A stretch of 32,000 nucleotides of DNA from NCBI RefSeq assembly GCF_000195755.1, contig NC_002937.3, positions 150,001 through 182,000 on the forward strand, in the 5' to 3' direction. Under the pieces are notes generated by a model. It was not told the DNA's origin and did no database searches. It saw only the letters and a program-made list of their open reading frames with translations. Made by a program: the position numbers and the translations under genes. This DNA comes from Nitratidesulfovibrio vulgaris str. Hildenborough. GTDB lineage: Bacteria > Desulfobacterota > Desulfovibrionia > Desulfovibrionales > Desulfovibrionaceae. Numbering within the stretch: the first letter of the stretch is position 1; every line of letters begins with the position of its first letter. Positions 1,761 to 23,733 of the stretch are shown here, one piece after another.

Positions 1761-2046
1761 GGTTTTCCTGTTATCTTGAGGATTGCGCCCATACGCTGCG
1801 CTGTCGTGCCGTTGCCTGCATGGGCGTATCCGGTTTGCCATGCCGCGTTCATCCATCCGGTTGCGGTCAGTCTGCCGACCGGCGGTCGACCGGGTGCAGC
1901 CCCGCAGCCCCCCCGCAGCCTGTGGCCACCCGTAGCTATCCGCAATCGCGCCTTGTACCGCCCTCGGGCCGTCCTTGGGCCGCCCTTGGGCAGGAGGTCG
2001 GGGAGGTTTCGGTGCGCATCGGACAAACCCCGCCCGGATGTCTCTG

Positions 2047-3411
2047 CTAGATGTCGATGGAAAGCTCTTTGAGCTTGAGCCACAACTGCTTGCGGCTGAT
2101 ACCGAGCAGGTCGGCAGCCTGTATCTTGCGGCCCCCCGTGCGTTCCAGCGCCTCCATGATGCGACGTCTCTCGAAGCGTGCCACCCCTTCGGCAAGGGAC
2201 GCCGGGGTGTCGCCCGCGTCATCGTCGCAGGCGGGTGGCATGGACTGCGTGGCTGCGCGGATGCGTTCAGGCAGGTGCCCCACGTGAATCTCCCCTTCGG
2301 TGCAGAGCAGTACGGCATGTTCCACGGCGTTGCGCAGTTCACGCACGTTGCCGGGGTAGTCGTAGGCCAGCAGGGCAAGGCGGGCCTGTTCCGAGAGCGT
2401 GGCCTGACGTTCGTGCAAGGCGCAGAATCGCCGCAGGAAGCGTTCGGTGAGAAGGGCCACGTCGCTGCCACGTTCGCGCAGGGGCGGCAGCGTCACGGGC
2501 ACGACGTTGATGCGGTAGTAGAGGTCTTCGCGGAATCTGCCGTCGGCTATGGCCTCCTCGAGGTTCCGTGCCGTGGCGAACACCGTGCGCACGTTGACCT
2601 TGCGCGGGGTGTTGCCCCCCACGGGGGTCACCTCCTGGTCTTCCAGCACACGCAGCAGCTTCGCCTGAAGGGGCAGGGGCATCTCGCCCACCTCGTCGAA
2701 GAACAGCGTACCGCCGTCGGCAGCCTCGAACTTGCCGATGCGCGCCTGCTGGGCACCGGTGAAGGCTCCCTTCTCGTGCCCGAACAACTCCGATTCGAGC
2801 AACTGTTCCGGCAGTGCCGCGCAGTTGATCTTGATGAACGGCCTGTCGCGGCGCTTGCTGCGGCGATGCAGCGCACCCGCCACCAGTTCCTTGCCCGACC
2901 CGCTGGGGCCGAGCACGAGTACCGGCACACAGGCGTCGGCGAGGGCGCGGATGCGGTCGAAGACCTTGAGCATGGCCGGGCTTTCGCCGATGAACTCGCC
3001 TTCTTCACGTTCTCCGCGCAGTCTGTCGTTCTCGCGCTTGAGGTCGAGAAAGCGGAAGAACCGTTCGACGGCGATGAGCAGCCCGTCACTCTGGAAGGGC
3101 TTGCACAGGAAGTCGAAGGCCCCGGCCTTGATGGCCTGTACGGCCAGTTCCACTTCGGGGAAGGCAGTGATGAGGATGACGCCCGTGCCCGGATGCATCT
3201 CGCGGATGCTGTCGAGCAGTTCCATGCCGCTCATGCCGGGCAGGCGCAGGTCGGTGATGACGAGGTCGAAGGGTCGTCGGTGCAGGGCGTGGCGTGCCGC
3301 CTCGGCGGTGTCCGCCGCGGCGACCTCGTAGCCTGCGCGCGAGAGCGCGTGCTGCATGCCGAGGCGCATGGAGAGTTCATCTTCGACGAGAAGTATGGAG
3401 TGGGGGGTCAT
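2047..3411 (-). CDS. sigma-54-dependent response regulator (NtrC family: receiver + AAA+ + Fis-type HTH)
   Basis: Receiver domain (ILLVEDE, VITDLRLPGMSG, KP). AAA+ Walker A GPSGSGKE. Sigma-54 contact loop GAFTGA in FGHEKGAFTGAQ. C-terminal HTH AADLLGISRKQLWLKLKE. The ATGA start/stop overlap with the upstream kinase gene implies an operon. Confidence 0.95.
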   Translation of the reverse strand: MTPHSILLVEDELSMRLGMQHALSRAGYEVAAADTAEAARHALHRRPFDLVITDLRLPGMSGMELLDSIREMHPGTGVILITAFPEVELAVQAIKAGAFDFLCKPFQSDGLLIAVERFFRFLDLKRENDRLRGEREEGEFIGESPAMLKVFDRIRALADACVPVLVLGPSGSGKELVAGALHRRSKRRDRPFIKINCAALPEQLLESELFGHEKGAFTGAQQARIGKFEAADGGTLFFDEVGEMPLPLQAKLLRVLEDQEVTPVGGNTPRKVNVRTVFATARNLEEAIADGRFREDLYYRINVVPVTLPPLRERGSDVALLTERFLRRFCALHERQATLSEQARLALLAYDYPGNVRELRNAVEHAVLLCTEGEIHVGHLPERIRAATQSMPPACDDDAGDTPASLAEGVARFERRRIMEALERTGGRKIQAADLLGISRKQLWLKLKELSIDI

Positions 3412-5072
3412 GGCGTCTCCCTTGCGAGTGGCAGGCTGATGACAAAGGTGGCACCGGCGGGGTGGTCTTGCCCTGCGTGTTGTCCGCCGTGCGCGTGCGG
3501 GGTGGTGTCCGGGGGCGTGTCGGTACAGGCTCCCTTGTGGGCTTCGGGGCAGCCCTCGGGGGATGCCTCTGCGGATGGTGCCTCCGGTGCGGGCGGCGAC
3601 TGTGCAGGCGGCGTCTGGATGAAGAGTGCGGAATCGGAGGGCCCCGCCTCGTCATGCGGCGGTTCCAGTGTCAGCGTGCCGCCGTGCCGCATGACGATGG
3701 ACGCCGACACGGCAAGGCCGAGTCCTGTGCCGCTGCCTGCGGGCTTGGTGGTGAAGAACGGGTCGAAGATGCGTTCGCGGTGCTCTTCGGCCACACCGGA
3801 ACCCGTATCCTGCACTTCGATGCGAACGTCGTCTCCGGCGCGACGGGCCGTGATGGTGAGCGTGCCACCGTCGGGCATGGCATCGGCCCCGTTGAGGACG
3901 AGGTTGAGCAGCACCTGCCCCATCTTGTCGGGGTCGATGGCAAGGGGGGGCACGTCGGGCGAGACATGGCGCACTACGTTGATGCGCCTGCGTTGCAGCG
4001 TGTAGTCCACGAGGGCCAGCGTGCGGTCGATGAGGTCGTCGGCACGCGCCTCGCGCACGGAAAGCGGGGCGGGGCGCGCATAGTGCATGAGTTCGCGCAC
4101 GATGCGCCGTATCTTTTCGAGTCCGTCGTCGATGACCTCGATATGCTGGCGGCGGGTGGCTTCGTCCATGCCGCCTTCGGTGAGGTTGCGGAAGCAGAGG
4201 ATGACCCCGCCGAGAGGGTTGTTGATTTCATGGGCCACGCCCGACGCCAGCTGGCCGATGGTGGCAAGCTTCTCGGTCTGGTACATGCCCTCCACTGCCC
4301 GCAGGCGTTCGCGTTCGGCGTCGCGCAGCCTGCGCGTCATCCACATGAAGCTGGCCTGCAACGTGCCTATCTCGTCATCGCGACGGGGCAGGTCGGGCAG
4401 CGGGCCCGCAAGGTCGCCGCGTGCGGTGATGTCGTTCATGGTGCGCGTAAGGGCGGCGAGGGGGCGCGCGAAGTGCCGCCCCGCATACCAGACCCCGGCG
4501 AGGGCCACCAGCAGCAGTACCGCGCTGATGCCCAGTACCTCGCGGCGCAGGGCGTCGAGGCTGCGGTACATCTCGCGCAGCGAGAAGCCGATGCGGCACA
4601 CCCCCCAGCGTTTGGAACCGATGGACAACGGCACCGCGATGTCCAGATGGGGCCCGAGGTTTGCCGTGTCCTGTCTCGATACCGTCGGAAAAGTCGCCGC
4701 CAGTGCCGTGCGGGTCGTCTCGTCGGTGTGCCGCCTGCCGTATTCGCGCAGGTTGTTGTGCGCGATGACGCGGCCTTCGGGGTCGAAGACCATGAAATAG
4801 ACGATACGCGTGTCGAGGCGCATGACGTCGGCCACGAAATAGTCGAGATAGTCCGACATGCCCGACGTGTCGACCATGCCGAGGTCTTCGTAAATACGGG
4901 CGTTGGTGAACAGCACCGCCGAGATGCGCGCGATGCCCATGCCCTGTTGCGTGGCGTTGCGCAGCAGCAGGTCCTCTTCGCGCTGGATGGTCACGAAACT
5001 GAGCACACCCGCGAAGATGGCGATGCACGGCACCGCGAAGAGGATGAACTTGGCCTGCATCCCGAATCTCAC
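3408..5072 (-). CDS. sensor histidine kinase (periplasmic sensor, HAMP, HisKA, HATPase_c with a low-complexity insert)
   Basis: Two TM segments flank a roughly 150-aa extracytoplasmic region. HAMP-like segment (RPLAALTRTMNDI...DEIGTL), H-box SGVAHEINNPLGG, N box LNLVLNGADAM, G boxes DTGSGV and GTGLGL. GTG start overlaps the upstream stop (GTGA); ATG at 5060 is an alternative. Confidence 0.9.
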   Translation of the reverse strand: MRFGMQAKFILFAVPCIAIFAGVLSFVTIQREEDLLLRNATQQGMGIARISAVLFTNARIYEDLGMVDTSGMSDYLDYFVADVMRLDTRIVYFMVFDPEGRVIAHNNLREYGRRHTDETTRTALAATFPTVSRQDTANLGPHLDIAVPLSIGSKRWGVCRIGFSLREMYRSLDALRREVLGISAVLLLVALAGVWYAGRHFARPLAALTRTMNDITARGDLAGPLPDLPRRDDEIGTLQASFMWMTRRLRDAERERLRAVEGMYQTEKLATIGQLASGVAHEINNPLGGVILCFRNLTEGGMDEATRRQHIEVIDDGLEKIRRIVRELMHYARPAPLSVREARADDLIDRTLALVDYTLQRRRINVVRHVSPDVPPLAIDPDKMGQVLLNLVLNGADAMPDGGTLTITARRAGDDVRIEVQDTGSGVAEEHRERIFDPFFTTKPAGSGTGLGLAVSASIVMRHGGTLTLEPPHDEAGPSDSALFIQTPPAQSPPAPEAPSAEASPEGCPEAHKGACTDTPPDTTPHAHGGQHAGQDHPAGATFVISLPLARETP

Positions 5073-6007
5073 GGCTGTGCCTCCTGCGTATCCGGCGACA
5101 GCCCCACCCTGCGCTCCATGGTGCGGAACATCTCGTACACCGAGGCGTCCACCGTGCCGAATCCATGGCGCAGCACTTCGTTCCAGCCTTCCGAGAGTCG
5201 GGCCACGTCGGGGGCGTCGGGGTCGATGCCAAGCAAGGCGTCACGCAGGGCGTTGCGTACCTCTTCGGGGACATCGGCCCGCGCCACGATGATGAAGCCG
5301 GGGAAGGGCTGCGTGGCGTCCACGACCTTGAGTCCCACCCCGAGGTAGCGCACGGCCATGGGTTCGCCAAGGGCCCCGGCGTCGTATTCACCGCGAAGGA
5401 CGGCACGCGCCACGGCATCGTGCGTTGTCAGGTTGGCATAGGTGGCGAAATCTTCGAGGGTGATGCCGTGTTCGGTGAGGTGGTCGAGGGGCGCGAGGTA
5501 GCTTGCGGTGGAGTCGGGCGACCCGAAGGCGAAACGCTTGCCCTTGAGGTCGTTCGGCGAGCGGATGTCCTGCCGGTCTTCGCGTGCCACGATGAGGCTT
5601 CGCGTCGTGGGGGTCCCGTCCCGGCCCAGGACGGCACAGAGCGGTATCAGCGGGGTGCGGCCCCGTGCCTGCAGGAAGGTGCGGCCCGCCAGCAGCGCGA
5701 TGTCGAGGGTGCCCGCCTCCAGCCTGTCCACGATGGTCGAGTAGCGGTGTTCCAGTACCAGTTCGAAGCGCCATGGCTGGCGTTCGGCGAGAAAGTCGAG
5801 GAACGGCTGGTACTGCTGGTAGATGACCAGCGGGTGATTCAGCGTGATGACGCCGAAGCGGTAGGCGCGGGGCTTCGTGCCCGTTCCATTGACCTGCTGC
5901 TGTGTTCCGGCTTCGGGCGGGGGCGTGGCGGCATGCGCCGGGGCTGCGCGAGACGACGCGACCGCGAGGCACAGCGCGATGAGAATCAGGGCAAGGGGGC
6001 GGGCCAT
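5069..6007 (-). CDS. PhnD-like (phosphonate/phosphite-type) periplasmic substrate-binding protein, probable kinase co-sensor
   Basis: Signal peptide MARPLALILIALCLAVASSRAAPAHA. Body (YRFGVITLNHPLVIYQQYQPFLDFL, LEAGTLDIALLAG, FAFGSPDSTASYL) resembles PhnD-family binding proteins. GGAG lies 6 nt before the ATG. Overlaps the kinase gene start. Confidence 0.8.
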   Translation of the reverse strand: MARPLALILIALCLAVASSRAAPAHAATPPPEAGTQQQVNGTGTKPRAYRFGVITLNHPLVIYQQYQPFLDFLAERQPWRFELVLEHRYSTIVDRLEAGTLDIALLAGRTFLQARGRTPLIPLCAVLGRDGTPTTRSLIVAREDRQDIRSPNDLKGKRFAFGSPDSTASYLAPLDHLTEHGITLEDFATYANLTTHDAVARAVLRGEYDAGALGEPMAVRYLGVGLKVVDATQPFPGFIIVARADVPEEVRNALRDALLGIDPDAPDVARLSEGWNEVLRHGFGTVDASVYEMFRTMERRVGLSPDTQEAQP

Positions 6008-6056: not shown

Positions 6057-6500
6057 CTAGGCCATGATGGTTATCTTGCAAGGGCTCGAACGGTTGAGGC
6101 GTTCGGCGAGATGCGGGGTGGTGAAGTCCATGCCCCAGCTGTGCGGGGGCAGCACTATCTCGTCTGCGCCGTTCTCGGTGGCGGCGGCAAGTACCTCGCG
6201 CAGGGGTTCGCCCCATCGCACCCCGAGCAGCGCGTGGACGCCGCTCTTGCGCGCCCGCTCGACGAAACCGCCCAGACGCGCCTCGCATTCGCTCTCGCCC
6301 TGCTCGCGCACGTAGTTTAGGAAGGTCTCCTTGTCACTCTGCGTGGCAAGCTGGTCCACCAAGCCATAATGCATGAGGTCGGTATCCACAACATGCAGGG
6401 CCATCACGCTGCCGCCTTCGCGGCGGAGGGTGGCGATGACGTGGTCTTCGGCGTGCCGTGCCTCTACGGAACCGTCGCTGCCGAGAAGGATGCGTCGCAT
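6057..6500 (-). CDS. universal stress protein (UspA family)
   Basis: 147 aa. RILLGSDGS start and a C-terminal ATP-binding-like region (AAATENGADEIVLPPHSWG) are typical of the UspA fold. AAGGAG lies 6 nt upstream of the ATG. Confidence 0.8.
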   Translation of the reverse strand: MRRILLGSDGSVEARHAEDHVIATLRREGGSVMALHVVDTDLMHYGLVDQLATQSDKETFLNYVREQGESECEARLGGFVERARKSGVHALLGVRWGEPLREVLAAATENGADEIVLPPHSWGMDFTTPHLAERLNRSSPCKITIMA

Positions 6501-6581: not shown

Positions 6582-6680
6582 CTAGGCGAGGAACTTGGCG
6601 AGGGTGATCACGGCGAAACCGAGGAAGACGACGATGGCGTCCTGACGGCGCGACTTGGAGAGGGACTTGAAGAACGACAT
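6582..6680 (-). CDS. 32-aa single-TM mini-protein (MSFFKSLSKSRRQDAIVVFLGFAVITLAKFLA), not in the supplied ORF track
   Basis: My translation of the complement of 6680..6582. The ATG lies 12 nt after the YeiH stop, with AAGGAG overlapping that stop and 7 nt of spacing. Nearly all third codon positions are G/C, as in neighbouring genes. Basic N-terminus followed by a hydrophobic helix. Confidence 0.6.
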   Translation of the reverse strand: MSFFKSLSKSRRQDAIVVFLGFAVITLAKFLA

Positions 6681-6692
6681 GGTTATGCTCCT

Positions 6693-7775
6693 TTAGCTCA
6701 TGAAGAGGAGGACAGCGGCAAGGGCGAGGGCGGCCTTGAGGCCAGCTACGCCGAAGCCGAACAGGAACCCGTTGAGGCCCGCAGCGCGCAGGTCGGAAAG
6801 ACGGGTGGTGAGACCGATGCTGGCGAAGCCCAGCAGGAAGGCCCATTCCATGAAGTGCTTGGCCATCTTCACTTCGGGCTTGGTGAGAACGCCCGCCGTG
6901 TTGAGGCACACGATGGCGAGGAAGCCCAGGACGAACAGCGGGAACTTGTCGCGGATCATCTGCCACTTGTTGATCTTGGCGACTTCGTTGCCCTGTTCGG
7001 CTTCCTGTGCGGCGGCCATGATGGCGAGCATCAGCACCACGAAGGGCAGGAAGACCACGCGGCCGATGTTGTAGATGCCCGCGACGATGCCCGCTTCCTG
7101 ACTGAAACCGAAGCCCGCGGCCAGCACCTGCGCCGAGTTGACGATGCCGACGCCCGCGAAGGCACCGAACTGCTCGGGGGTGAGGTTGAACACCTTGCCG
7201 ATGAGCGGGAAGGCGATGAGCGCCAGCAGGCCGAACATGAGCACCACGGCGATGGAGTAGGCCATGTCCTCGTTCTTGGCCTTGACCGCGGGGGCGATGG
7301 CGATGGTGGCGGAAACGCCGCACACCGACATGCCCGCCGCGAGACACGCGGCAAGAGGCGTGGACATGCCGACCTTGCGGCACAGCCACATCATGACCAG
7401 CGCCGTTCCGAACAGGAACACGGCGATGAACACCAGCGCCTGTGCACCCACTGAGACAAGGCCAGCCAGCGAATAGCTGGAACCCATGATGACGATGCCC
7501 GTCTTGGTCATGATGGTCGAGTAGCGCAGCCCCGGCTGGAACACGGCGGGAACGCCCACGGTGTTGCGGATGATGATGCCGAAGATGATGGCGAGGATGA
7601 AGTCCTTGAGCGAGAGATAGGTCTTGAACAGCGGATAGGCTTCAAGCTTGGGTGCCACGAAGCTGGCGACGAGGGCCACCGCACAGACCAGCAGCAGGCC
7701 GGGAAGGCTCTCCGTCACGGCCCGTGCGAAACTCTGCTGGGCTTCGACAGGCTGGGAGATGACGTTCTGGGACAT
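6693..7775 (-). CDS. yeiH: YeiH/UPF0324 (putative sulfate exporter, PSE family) membrane protein
   Basis: 360-aa polytopic membrane protein whose length and pattern resemble the YeiH family. AGGAG lies 7 nt upstream of the ATG. Preceded by a sigma-54 promoter. Confidence 0.8.
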   Translation of the reverse strand: MSQNVISQPVEAQQSFARAVTESLPGLLLVCAVALVASFVAPKLEAYPLFKTYLSLKDFILAIIFGIIIRNTVGVPAVFQPGLRYSTIMTKTGIVIMGSSYSLAGLVSVGAQALVFIAVFLFGTALVMMWLCRKVGMSTPLAACLAAGMSVCGVSATIAIAPAVKAKNEDMAYSIAVVLMFGLLALIAFPLIGKVFNLTPEQFGAFAGVGIVNSAQVLAAGFGFSQEAGIVAGIYNIGRVVFLPFVVLMLAIMAAAQEAEQGNEVAKINKWQMIRDKFPLFVLGFLAIVCLNTAGVLTKPEVKMAKHFMEWAFLLGFASIGLTTRLSDLRAAGLNGFLFGFGVAGLKAALALAAVLLFMS

Positions 7776-7811
7776 GGGACACTCCTGAGGGCAAAAGTTT
7801 ACCTTGCCATG

Positions 7812-7827
7812 AGCAAATGGAGTGCCA
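7812..7827 (-). promoter_or_regulatory. sigma-54 -24/-12 promoter (TGGCAC-TCCAT-TTGCT)
   Basis: Complement of 7827..7812 matches TGGCAC-N5-TTGCW at all conserved positions. The GC of the -12 box is 38 nt upstream of the yeiH-type ATG. Confidence 0.8.
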
Positions 7828-7902
7828 TGCCTTTTAGGTGTTCAATCACAGATGGTTACATCTTCGATGTCGTGTTTCTCGTGTGTGTTTGCGGGAAGGG
7901 AA

Positions 7903-7973
7903 TGGAACGGTTCCACCAACGATGTTCCTTTGAGGGAACATGTTCCTGTTCGGGTACGCAGTCTGAAGGAACC
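7903..7973. promoter_or_regulatory. array of GGAAC/GTTCC half-sites; candidate enhancer (UAS) for a sigma-54 activator
   Basis: TGGAAC-G-GTTCCA (7903-7915), TGTTCC-N6-GGAACA (7923-7940), GGAACATGTTCC (7935-7946), degenerate GTTCG (7948-7952), GGAAC (7968-7972). The array lies 76-146 bp upstream of the -24 box. Confidence 0.6.
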
Positions 7974-8212
7974 TGAGCCCATCCTCGCTCCTGCCATGGC
8001 TTTGTGGTAGCGATAGGCCAAGGTGTATGACGGGATGTGAAGGTGGGCCTTCGTACAGCGGCATCCGGTGCAGGGTGTCACGGGACACCGGGCGGTAGAC
8101 CGGGTGCGGAATCTCGCCGGAACACGTTGCAGGCCGCATCACGCCAGCCTTCACGGGCATGACCTGAAGCCCCGCACCGTCCTGTTTCGAAGCCGTCACA
8201 CAGGAGCGTTGC

Positions 8213-9346
8213 ATGAAGAAACGCCTTTTCGTTCTCCTTGTTCTTTTGGGTGTGGCGAGCGCTGCGGGGTGGTACGTGACCCGGCATGCGCCCGGAGATG
8301 GCCCGGAAGTGCTGCATGGGAACATCGACCATCGGCAGGTGGACCTCGCCTTCAAGGATGCAGAACGTGTGTCCACGGTGCAAGTGGACGAGGGTGACGC
8401 CGTTGCCGCCGGGGATGTGGTCGCCACGCTGGAAACGGAGCGCCTCGACCTTGAGATTGCCCGTTCCCGTGCCACGGTGCGGGCACAAGAGGCCGTCCTC
8501 GCCCGTCTTGAAGCCGGGTCCCGCCCGCAGGAGATTCGCCGTGCGGAGGCCGACGTGGCGGCGGCGGCAGCCGATGCGGTCAATGCCCGTGCCGTTCATG
8601 CGCGCATGGCCGCGTTGCTCGCCGTCGGGGGGGTGGCCCCGCAGGATGAGGAGAACGCCCGTGCCGCGCGTGATGTGGCCGAGGGCCGCGCCGCGCAGGC
8701 CAGGGCCCAACTCGCGCTGGTGCGCGAGGGGCCGCGTTCCGAAGACATCGATGAGGCGCGGGCCGCACTGGCGGCGCGCCGTCAGGAACTGGCGGTGCTC
8801 GAGCGGCGGCGTGTGGAGAGCGTGCTCGTCGCCCCCACGGCGGGTGTGGTGCGCAAGCGCCTTCTCGAACCGGGCGATATGGCTGCCCCGTCGCGCCCGG
8901 TGTGCACCATCGACCTCACCGGGGTGAAGTGGGTGCGGGTCTTCGTGCCGGAGTCCATGCTTGCGACCATGGTCCCGGGGCGCGCGGCGGAGGTGTCCGT
9001 CGACGGCGCACCGGGCAAGGTCTTCGCGGGCAGGGTGGCCCATGTGGCCGCGTCTGCCGAATTCACGCCCCGCAATGTGGAGACGCCTGAACTGCGCACA
9101 TCGCTGGTGTACGAGGTGCGGGTGCTCGTGGATGACCCGGGAGGGCTGCTGCGACTCGGCATGCCCGCCACGGTACGGCTGGTGTCCCTCGCTCCTTCTG
9201 CAGCCTCTTCGGGTGGAGACGTGAACGCCTCCGACAGCGGGCCACTTGCGAGCAACAGGTCACGTGCGATGCCGCACAGGGGGGACGCTGGCCAGAGCGC
9301 TGCTGCGGCGAGCGGTGCGGCGCATGGCGGGGGGCACGATTCGTGA
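8213..9346 (+). CDS. HlyD-family membrane fusion/periplasmic adaptor protein (YbhG-like)
   Basis: N-terminal anchor MKKRLFVLLVLLGVASAAGWYV. Coiled-coil Ala/Arg-rich centre and beta-barrel-like C-terminal part, then a low-complexity tail. AGGAG lies 6 nt upstream. The stop overlaps the next start (GTGA). Confidence 0.85.
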   Translation: MKKRLFVLLVLLGVASAAGWYVTRHAPGDGPEVLHGNIDHRQVDLAFKDAERVSTVQVDEGDAVAAGDVVATLETERLDLEIARSRATVRAQEAVLARLEAGSRPQEIRRAEADVAAAAADAVNARAVHARMAALLAVGGVAPQDEENARAARDVAEGRAAQARAQLALVREGPRSEDIDEARAALAARRQELAVLERRRVESVLVAPTAGVVRKRLLEPGDMAAPSRPVCTIDLTGVKWVRVFVPESMLATMVPGRAAEVSVDGAPGKVFAGRVAHVAASAEFTPRNVETPELRTSLVYEVRVLVDDPGGLLRLGMPATVRLVSLAPSAASSGGDVNASDSGPLASNRSRAMPHRGDAGQSAAAASGAAHGGGHDS

Positions 9347-17704: not shown

Positions 17705-18004
17705 ACTGCATGCCGCCCTGCCCTGTACAGATTCAAGGGGCGCGGCAAGGCGCGTCGCAACGTCTCGTCGTGGCGCAGGATATCTTTATAGCTGTAAAAA
17801 AAGCTGACACCGGGTATCGTGGGCGTTGATGGTGTGCTGTGTGTGACTTTATCATTATATTCTGGTGTGTTGCTGTTAAGACGTTAGATTGCGGGCTACA
17901 TCTGGCAAGAATGCTGACGGTGGATGCCCGGAAGGAGGTCGCAGACTTATAAAAATCTTTTACTACAGTTGGTTATGAATAAAACCATGCCTGTGGGTAC
18001 GGTA

Positions 18005-18020
18005 TGGCACACCCGTTGCT
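18005..18020 (+). promoter_or_regulatory. sigma-54 -24/-12 promoter (TGGCAC-ACCCG-TTGCT)
   Basis: Exact match to TGGCAC-N5-TTGCW, about 93 nt upstream of ATG 18112. It is preceded by the most AT-rich stretch of the window (about 17780-17990). Confidence 0.8.
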
Positions 18021-18111
18021 TTTGTGAACGCGTGTCTCCGCCGCAGGGCTGCGGCAGGGGGTGCGACACTAGGTTCCGAAACTGCGTGCAGATTTACGGA
18101 GGAGTCACGTA

Positions 18112-23534: not shown

Positions 23535-23574
23535 GTTCGCCCCGTCTGTTGCCACGAGGGAACACGGGGCGAAC
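23535..23574 (+). terminator. 11-bp stem-loop downstream of the receiver gene; possible weak terminator
   Basis: GTTCGCCCCGT (23535-23545), 18-nt loop, ACGGGGCGAAC (23564-23574), followed by TCGTTGCT (a poor U tract). Confidence 0.35.
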
Positions 23575-23733
23575 TCGTTGCTGGCGTGGTACAGGCACGG
23601 TCCTGCCGCCCTTCGGGTGGCGCATAGCTGTCCCGGTGGGAAAGCGGCGCCGGGGGGTGGCGACATCCGAAAGCCTTTGTCGTTGCGCGTTCAATGGTAC
23701 GCTGTTTGCTCTCTCTTGTGCGGAGCATCATGT

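Follow-up and report, generated by a model that had tools for sequence, protein, structure and literature searches.

The GGAAC/GTTCC half-site array upstream of DVU0123 in Nitratidesulfovibrio vulgaris Hildenborough is the published DVU0118 enhancer and carries a half-site at a recurrent 31-bp spacing

The cluster of GGAAC/GTTCC half-sites upstream of DVU0123 in Nitratidesulfovibrio vulgaris str. Hildenborough is the enhancer, already mapped by experiment, to which the NtrC-family response regulator DVU0118 binds. Its sequence, regulator and promoter have been known since 2011 (Rajeev et al. 2011, Genome Biol 12:R99, PMC3333781) and were catalogued in 2015 (Kazakov et al. 2015, BMC Genomics 16:919, PMC4641369). 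We base this identification on a published oligonucleotide, motif instances, primers, promoter and offsets, all of which match exactly the DNA of the window (the whole stretch of 32,000 nt analysed here, chromosome positions 150001–182000). Very probably, the array is the UAS of the sigma-54 promoter of the DVU0123–DVU0121 operon, where DVU0118 dimers would occupy sites with a 6-bp spacer (N6), be phosphorylated by the kinase DVU0119 and open the promoter by looping. An earlier note on this DNA, made from the letters alone, had read the array in the same way, as a UAS that serves a sigma-54 promoter and is occupied by an enhancer-binding protein, and had proposed the NtrC-type regulator encoded at 2047–3411 for binding assays; this regulator is DVU0118, already shown to bind by Rajeev et al. 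(2011). The same note held that the motif could not be assigned to any characterised regulator, which was wrong, as DVU0118 bound exactly this DNA (PMC3333781). Our additions to the published work are all modest: a half-site at +31, a wider conservation in the Desulfovibrionaceae and a separately driven 32-aa peptide. They may help studies of NtrC-type activator assembly where a strong site is paired with a weak one, as well as the search for what a regulon of a YeiH transporter, a Usp protein and a small peptide senses in sulfate reducers. That both the enhancer and the correct regulator were picked from sequence alone supports the scanning approach. The features of the locus are collected in Table 1.

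Table 1. Features of the DVU0118–DVU0123 locus, in window coordinates
Feature	Position	Strand	Basis
DVU0118, NtrC-family response regulator, 454 aa	2047..3411	-	REC, Sigma54_activat (AAA+, GAFTGA), HTH_8 (Fis-type HTH)
DVU0119, sensor histidine kinase (sCache_3_2, HAMP, HisKA, HATPase_c)	3408..5072	-	Domains; cognate kinase in Rajeev Table S1
DVU0120, PhnD-like periplasmic substrate-binding protein	5069..6007	-	Pfam PF12974, 2e-54
DVU0121, universal stress protein family	6057..6500	-	Pfam Usp; syntenic in L001–L003 and L010
DVU0122, 32-aa hydrophobic small protein MSFFKSLSKSRRQDAIVVFLGFAVITLAKFLA, annotated 'hypothetical'	6582..6680	-	ORF search
DVU0123, YeiH/UPF0324-family membrane transporter, first gene of operon	6693..7775	-	Pfam PF03601, 4e-59
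Sigma-54 promoter of DVU0123, CATGGCACTCCATTTGCTC	7811..7829	-	Kazakov Additional file 6, exact; top score in sigma-54 scan
Conserved block GTAACCATC (gene strand)	7851..7859	-	Kept in the window and N. oxamicus (L001), partly in L002
GTTCC half-site (gene strand), 31 bp promoter-proximal of the primary site's GTTCC	7904..7908	-	Absent from published tables
GGAAC (gene strand), no N6 partner; with 7904–7908 forms TGGAAC-G-GTTCCA	7910..7914	-	Pentamer search
Primary DVU0118 site, ATGTTCC-ctcaaa-GGAACAT, perfect palindrome	7922..7941	-	Rajeev Table S7/S9 and Kazakov Additional file 4, exact
Second published DVU0118 site (-184), GCGTACC-cgaaca-GGAACAT	7940..7959	-	Rajeev Table S7, exact
Distal orphan GTTCC (gene strand), 33 bp upstream of the primary site's GTTCC	7968..7972	-	Pentamer search; no N6 partner

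The array is dense and its clustering is non-random. A pentamer search located six perfect GGAAC/GTTCC copies, at 7904(+), 7910(-), 7924(-), 7935(+), 7942(-) and 7968(+), and reading of the sequence added a degenerate copy, GGTAC, at 7953–7957, so that the whole cluster spans 7904–7972, with the composition first described for it. The three palindromes named at that time were likewise all found: TGGAAC-G-GTTCCA at 7903–7915, TGTTCC-N6-GGAACA at 7923–7940 and GGAACATGTTCC at 7935–7946. When 97 sites were placed randomly in 20,000 trials, six or more fell inside 69 bp in just two, and elsewhere in the window no 69-bp span holds more than three pentamers; the claim that the clustering is not chance thus stands. 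The background rate of once per ~500 bp given with that claim agrees with the composition-based expectation (dinucleotide shuffles of the window give 63.6 pentamers, about 1 per 500 bp) but is too low for the actual sequence, with its 97 copies on both strands of the window, or 1 per 330 bp. None of 100 shuffles reached the 97 copies observed. The coding strand of the DVU0118 ORF alone carries eight copies, and the window-wide over-representation is probably a codon or dipeptide effect.

Several lines of published evidence place DVU0118 on this DNA. The EMSA substrate that Rajeev et al. list for DVU0118 and its target DVU0123, CGAACAGGAACATGTTCCCTCAAAGGAACATCGTTGGTGGAA (PMC3333781 Table S6, 'shift: yes'), is the exact reverse complement of window positions 7911–7952, and the same 42-mer mutated in both palindrome halves was not shifted by the purified protein ('shift: no', Table S6). 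Binding in vitro is therefore specific and dependent on the 7922–7941 palindrome (PMC3333781). The two motif instances of their Table S7, ATGTTCCCTCAAAGGAACAT (-166) and GCGTACCCGAACAGGAACAT (-184), match the window exactly at 7922–7941 and 7940–7959, respectively, and both offsets agree with a DVU0123 ATG at 7775 (7941 - 7775 = 166; 7959 - 7775 = 184). Pentamers 7924, 7935 and 7942, together with the degenerate copy, are parts of these two published sites. In the -184 site one half is degenerate (GTACC); this site and the primary one share 2 bp, and their centres are 18 bp apart. Primers 123-F and 123-R (sites 7766–7787 and 8106–8125) delimit a 360-bp EMSA fragment equal to window 7766–8125, and qPCR primer 123-R-200 lies at 7946–7968; the qPCR enrichment was 9.4-fold (PMC3333781). 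The DVU0118 DAP-chip peak, at genome positions 157622–158318, extends 153 bp into DVU0123 and 105 bp into DVU0125 (PMC3333781); it corresponds to window 7622–8318 and fits start codons at 7775 and 8213. DVU0118 had one target locus in the genome, and Table S8 gives no other hits (PMC3333781). Kazakov et al. (2015) list the same site, promoter and regulator in Additional files 4 and 6. A literature search on DVU0118–DVU0125, in which the paper of Kazakov et al. (2015) was the only one to name these genes in its main text, found no DVU0118 mutant, reporter or mapped transcription start for the DVU0123 promoter, and no fitness or expression phenotype.

Two further peaks among the top DVU0118 DAP-chip peaks, at genome positions 152043–152196 and 153347–153413, coincide with the two ends of the DVU0118 ORF (window 2043–2196 and 3347–3413). 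Neither end contains a motif copy within one mismatch, and these peaks look more like carried-over expression construct than like binding. A terminator-like hit at 7922–7941, in which the palindrome is read as a hairpin, was rejected because it lies between two divergent start codons.

The regulator itself is identified by position as well as by domains. Rajeev et al. give DVU0118 as a 454-aa protein with DVU0119 as its cognate kinase (PMC3333781 Table S1). Their DAP-chip offsets set its start at window 3411, its length and position agree with their Tables S1 and S4, and its closest relatives are in the Desulfovibrionaceae. One discrepancy concerns labels. In Additional file 2 of Kazakov et al. 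(2015), the DNA-binding domain given for DVU0539 is GVARFERRRIMEALERTGGRKIQAADLLGISRKQLWLKLKEL, and that for DVU0118 is another sequence, yet the 454-aa regulator at 2047–3411, which is DVU0118 by coordinates and length, ends in exactly the sequence labelled 'DVU0539'. The discrepancy may be a row-label swap in Additional file 2 or in a copy of it. DVU0123 is named as a DVU0118 target in both published studies (PMC3333781; PMC4641369). In searches against NCBIfam, its match to TIGR00698 fell below the family cut-off and the DVU0122 peptide matched no family.

The promoter lies where an enhancer of this kind would act. On the minus strand, TGGCAC (7827..7822) and TTGC (7816..7813), separated by N5, form a perfect sigma-54 match 52 bp upstream of the ATG at 7775. 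Kazakov et al. (2015, PMC4641369) give this promoter at -54, with DVU0118 as regulator of the operon DVU0123–DVU0121. Measured from it, the array lies 76–146 bp upstream of the -24 box, the distance at which it had been placed before; the main DVU0118 site is 112 bp from the -24 element, as compared with 110–121 bp in related loci, and an equivalent sigma-54 promoter is found in the orthologous loci. The interval between enhancer and promoter is AT-rich (55% vs 35% for the window). Assisted bending is unsupported, because a search of 7828–7903 for the IHF consensus WATCAANNNNTTR with two mismatches or fewer returned no IHF-like site between enhancer and promoter. The conserved block GTAACCATC within this interval likewise does not match the E. 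coli IHF consensus.

Taken with the published binding data, these features suggest how the locus may work. DVU0118 dimers would bind ATGTTCC-N6-GGAACAT through the C-terminal Fis-type helix-turn-helix, with 7922–7941 as the strong site and the published site abutting it at 7940–7959 as a weaker one. The half-site at 7904–7908, 31 bp nearer the promoter, would probably seat a further dimer cooperatively. DVU0119 would phosphorylate DVU0118, probably with DVU0120 as a periplasmic co-sensor; a DVU0120-type gene is linked to kinase and regulator in 10 loci. Clustered sites would aid the AAA+ domains in forming an active ring. DNA looping would bring this ring to the sigma-54 holoenzyme at TGGCAC-N5-TTGC, 112 bp away, where its use of ATP would open the promoter. 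Transcription probably reads through from DVU0123–DVU0121 into DVU0120–DVU0118. Phosphorylation, ring assembly, looping and promoter opening follow the established behaviour of NtrC-family activators; these steps, as well as activation in vivo, the signal and the roles of the extra half-sites, are inferred.

The array also lies in a divergent spacer (7776–8212, 437 bp), beyond which a HlyD-type gene (8213–9346) and then ABC/ABC-2 genes are encoded on the plus strand. It is conceivable that the array is a bidirectional element through which DVU0118 also activates or represses this divergent HlyD/ABC-2 efflux operon (DVU0125 onward, 8213+). The array sits inside the common spacer, 240–310 bp upstream of the start codon at 8213, and the DAP-chip peak covers the spacer in full (PMC3333781). 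However, the best sigma-54-like match towards 8213, TGGCTTTGTGGTAGCG, scores 11 of 14.5, which is background, since scores of 10 or more occur 553 times in the window, and there is no sigma-70-like promoter in that direction. DVU0125 is absent from the lists of sigma-54 operons and promoters of Kazakov et al. (2015, PMC4641369). Wherever the orthologous loci extend far enough upstream, a HlyD/ABC neighbour is absent, and the array therefore travels with the PF03601 gene. We consider bidirectional action very unlikely. The earlier note had placed the array in a spacer common to the HlyD/ABC operon: that geometry is correct, but it comes with neither a promoter above background nor conserved synteny, and any control that the array might exert in common on that operon is unsupported.

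Nor does it seem credible, except at the outermost margin of probability, that a different regulator recognises the close-spaced palindromes TGGAAC-G-GTTCCA and GGAACATGTTCC. Both are perfect inverted repeats, as such a protein would require, but GGAACATGTTCC is the junction of two published DVU0118 sites, and the N1 palindrome TGGAAC-G-GTTCCA is conserved in no related locus. Moreover, searches of the supplementary top-20 DAP-chip lists did not find the array region under any other response regulator (PMC3333781). Among the arrangements originally proposed as sites, then, the N6 palindrome is the recognised and conserved geometry, whereas GGAACATGTTCC is a mere junction of two abutting N6 sites and TGGAAC-G-GTTCCA is in no relative conserved as a palindrome.

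The motif is strongly conserved with its target gene. A search with the PF03601 protein against one genome per species yielded 15 orthologous loci at 65–84% identity, the best being that of N. oxamicus (84%). In 10 of the 15 the PF03601 gene is linked to binding protein, kinase and regulator. Across 232 kb (the window and the 15 loci) there are 17 copies of perfect GTTCC-N6-GGAAC, vs about 0.2 expected for ten fixed bases, and every one adjoins the orthologous PF03601 gene or its small-ORF neighbour, with none elsewhere in the 232 kb. Copies upstream of the PF03601 gene lie at -150 to -180 from the start codon, with their GTTCC about 110–112 bp upstream of the TGG of the -24 element. All orthologues of DVU0118 keep the recognition helix (S/T)RKQLWLK(L/M)KEL. 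The N6 palindrome is thus conserved beside the orthologous gene; the earlier note had named a lack of conservation in related genomes as a refutation of its reading. The published orthologous example of the DVU0118 site is that of D. vulgaris Miyazaki only; the conservation seen here is new, and reaches gut and environmental Desulfovibrionaceae. A Desulfobulbaceae locus (L011) carries two one-mismatch sites, 33 bp apart. In locus L009 (1823) the upstream palindrome and the start codon of the PF03601 gene are 383 bp apart, and the DNA between them looks coding; in L014, which has the same coding-like sequence, the upstream palindrome is absent; the position of the enhancer is therefore not fixed in all lineages.

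Three pentamers of the array, at 7904–7908, 7910–7914 and 7968–7972, fall outside the published two-site model, and we measured the offsets of every half-site around the 17 perfect palindromes. A GTTCC stands at exactly +31 in 11 of the 17 modules, including those of the window and N. oxamicus; in the window, this is the half-site at 7904–7908. The next commonest offset, +54, occurs in five modules, and all others at most three times, mostly once. In an alignment of eight related modules (A1, mean column identity 50%), the +31 half-site is invariant, like the palindrome and the promoter. It is kept in N. oxamicus despite diverged flanks, and L003 has a full palindrome at the position corresponding to 7904–7908. 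The eight aligned modules are homologous to each other, and independent support for the +31 spacing therefore comes from three or four lineages, not eleven. A chance origin of 7904–7908 is unlikely because of the recurrence of the offset, its invariance in the alignment and the L003 palindrome. We read 7904–7908 as probably a weak second site, unpublished, three helical turns from the strong one.

The remaining elements of the array appear to have a narrower distribution. The GGAAC at 7910–7914 has no equivalent in relatives (its offset of -19.5 is found in the window only), and four of its five bases are inside the EMSA 42-mer and unchanged in the mutant oligonucleotide that does not bind. 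The offset of 7968–7972 is likewise found in the window only; the 42-mer does not include this half-site, but both the 360-bp EMSA fragment and the DAP-chip peak do. The -184 site is specific to this genome, because it is absent from N. oxamicus and the other relatives. All three may be genome-specific additions, or noise.

These observations can be joined in a composite enhancer, to which we give about even credence. Here, the strong ATGTTCC-N6-GGAACAT and the GTTCC 31 bp promoter-proximal, joined in gut relatives by another site at +54, would be the real assembly unit of DVU0118-type regulators; Hildenborough would have added 7940–7959, 7910–7914 and 7968–7972, and the module of the relatives would separately drive a conserved 32-aa DVU0122 homologue. 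A simpler account, possible rather than probable in our estimation, is that just the two published N6 sites work and that the three extra pentamers are chance matches or decayed remnants. All three lack an N6 partner, 7910–7914 and 7968–7972 have no counterpart in any relative, and the mutant 42-mer lost binding though it kept four bases of 7910–7914 (PMC3333781). This account is harder to reconcile with 7904–7908, which has the exact offset common to 11 of the 17 modules, does not vary in alignment A1 (mean identity 50%) and corresponds to a full palindrome in L003.

A composite enhancer of this kind would have a familiar counterpart. At glnAp2 of E. coli and Salmonella, two strong NtrC dimer sites lie about three helical turns apart, with weaker sites in addition, roughly 100–140 bp upstream of the sigma-54 promoter. 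The DVU0123 enhancer resembles glnAp2 in its activator of the NtrC family (REC, AAA+ and Fis-type HTH), its inverted-repeat dimer sites, a neighbouring site 31–33 bp off and a distance of about 110 bp to the -24 element. It differs in the recognition sequence, which is GTTCC-N6-GGAAC here and of the TGCACC-N5-GGTGCA type for NtrC, in a second site that is mostly one half only, and in its targets, which are a YeiH-type transporter, a small peptide and a Usp protein rather than nitrogen assimilation genes. Compared with the published DVU0118/DVU0123 enhancer, the array is the same DNA; the published model has two sites and includes neither the half-sites in 7904–7914 and at 7968–7972 nor the conserved 31-bp spacing. 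Like the sites of other D. vulgaris enhancer-binding proteins, those of DVU0118 are inverted repeats of 4–6 bp with a 3–8 bp spacer, in two or three copies about 150–200 bp upstream of the start codon of the target. The recognition sequence is unlike those of DVU0539/DVU0946 (TGCAAA-N6-TTTGCA) and DVU0679 (CGTGCG-N4-CGCACG; PMC3333781 Table S7), and DVU0118 has a single target locus. The paralogous DVU0539/DVU0946, with similar gene content (Usp, membrane protein), was considered as the regulator of the array and rejected on its different motif.

In eight loci of gut-type Desulfovibrionaceae, the DVU0122 homologues have an enhancer module and a sigma-54 promoter of their own. In this module, GTTCC-N6-GGAAC is accompanied by a GTTCC at +31 and, in many cases, by a third site at +54, and a strong sigma-54 promoter lies at +120/121. 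It is found in L006 (4261–4700), L007 (9420–9800), L008 (1682–2260), L009 (3589–4100), L010 (2968–3500), L012 (1195–1700), L014 (5640–6025) and L015 (7783–8300). Some loci contain two tandem copies and others a second small ORF, MDLQTKV...; NCBIfam gave no match.

Elsewhere in the window, a one-mismatch copy of the motif, TGTTGC-cacgag-GGAACA, is found in intergenic DNA at 23547–23564, flanked by CGCCCCG/CGGGGCG. It lies 147 bp upstream of the sigma-54 promoter of DVU0139–DVU0140 (23693–23711, +), for which no regulator is given by Kazakov et al. (2015, PMC4641369). This near-motif is probably a chance match, because none of the top-20 DAP-chip lists has a peak near DVU0138–0140 and Table S8 gives no other DVU0118 hits (PMC3333781). 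A further enhancer-promoter pair already known from the literature is also present in the window: the DVU0110 site TGTAAAAAAAGCTGACA (17793–17809, +) and the DVU0132 sigma-54 promoter (18003–18021, +). The published sigma-54 promoters of DVU0132 and DVU0139 and the DVU0110 site all have consistent positions in the window.
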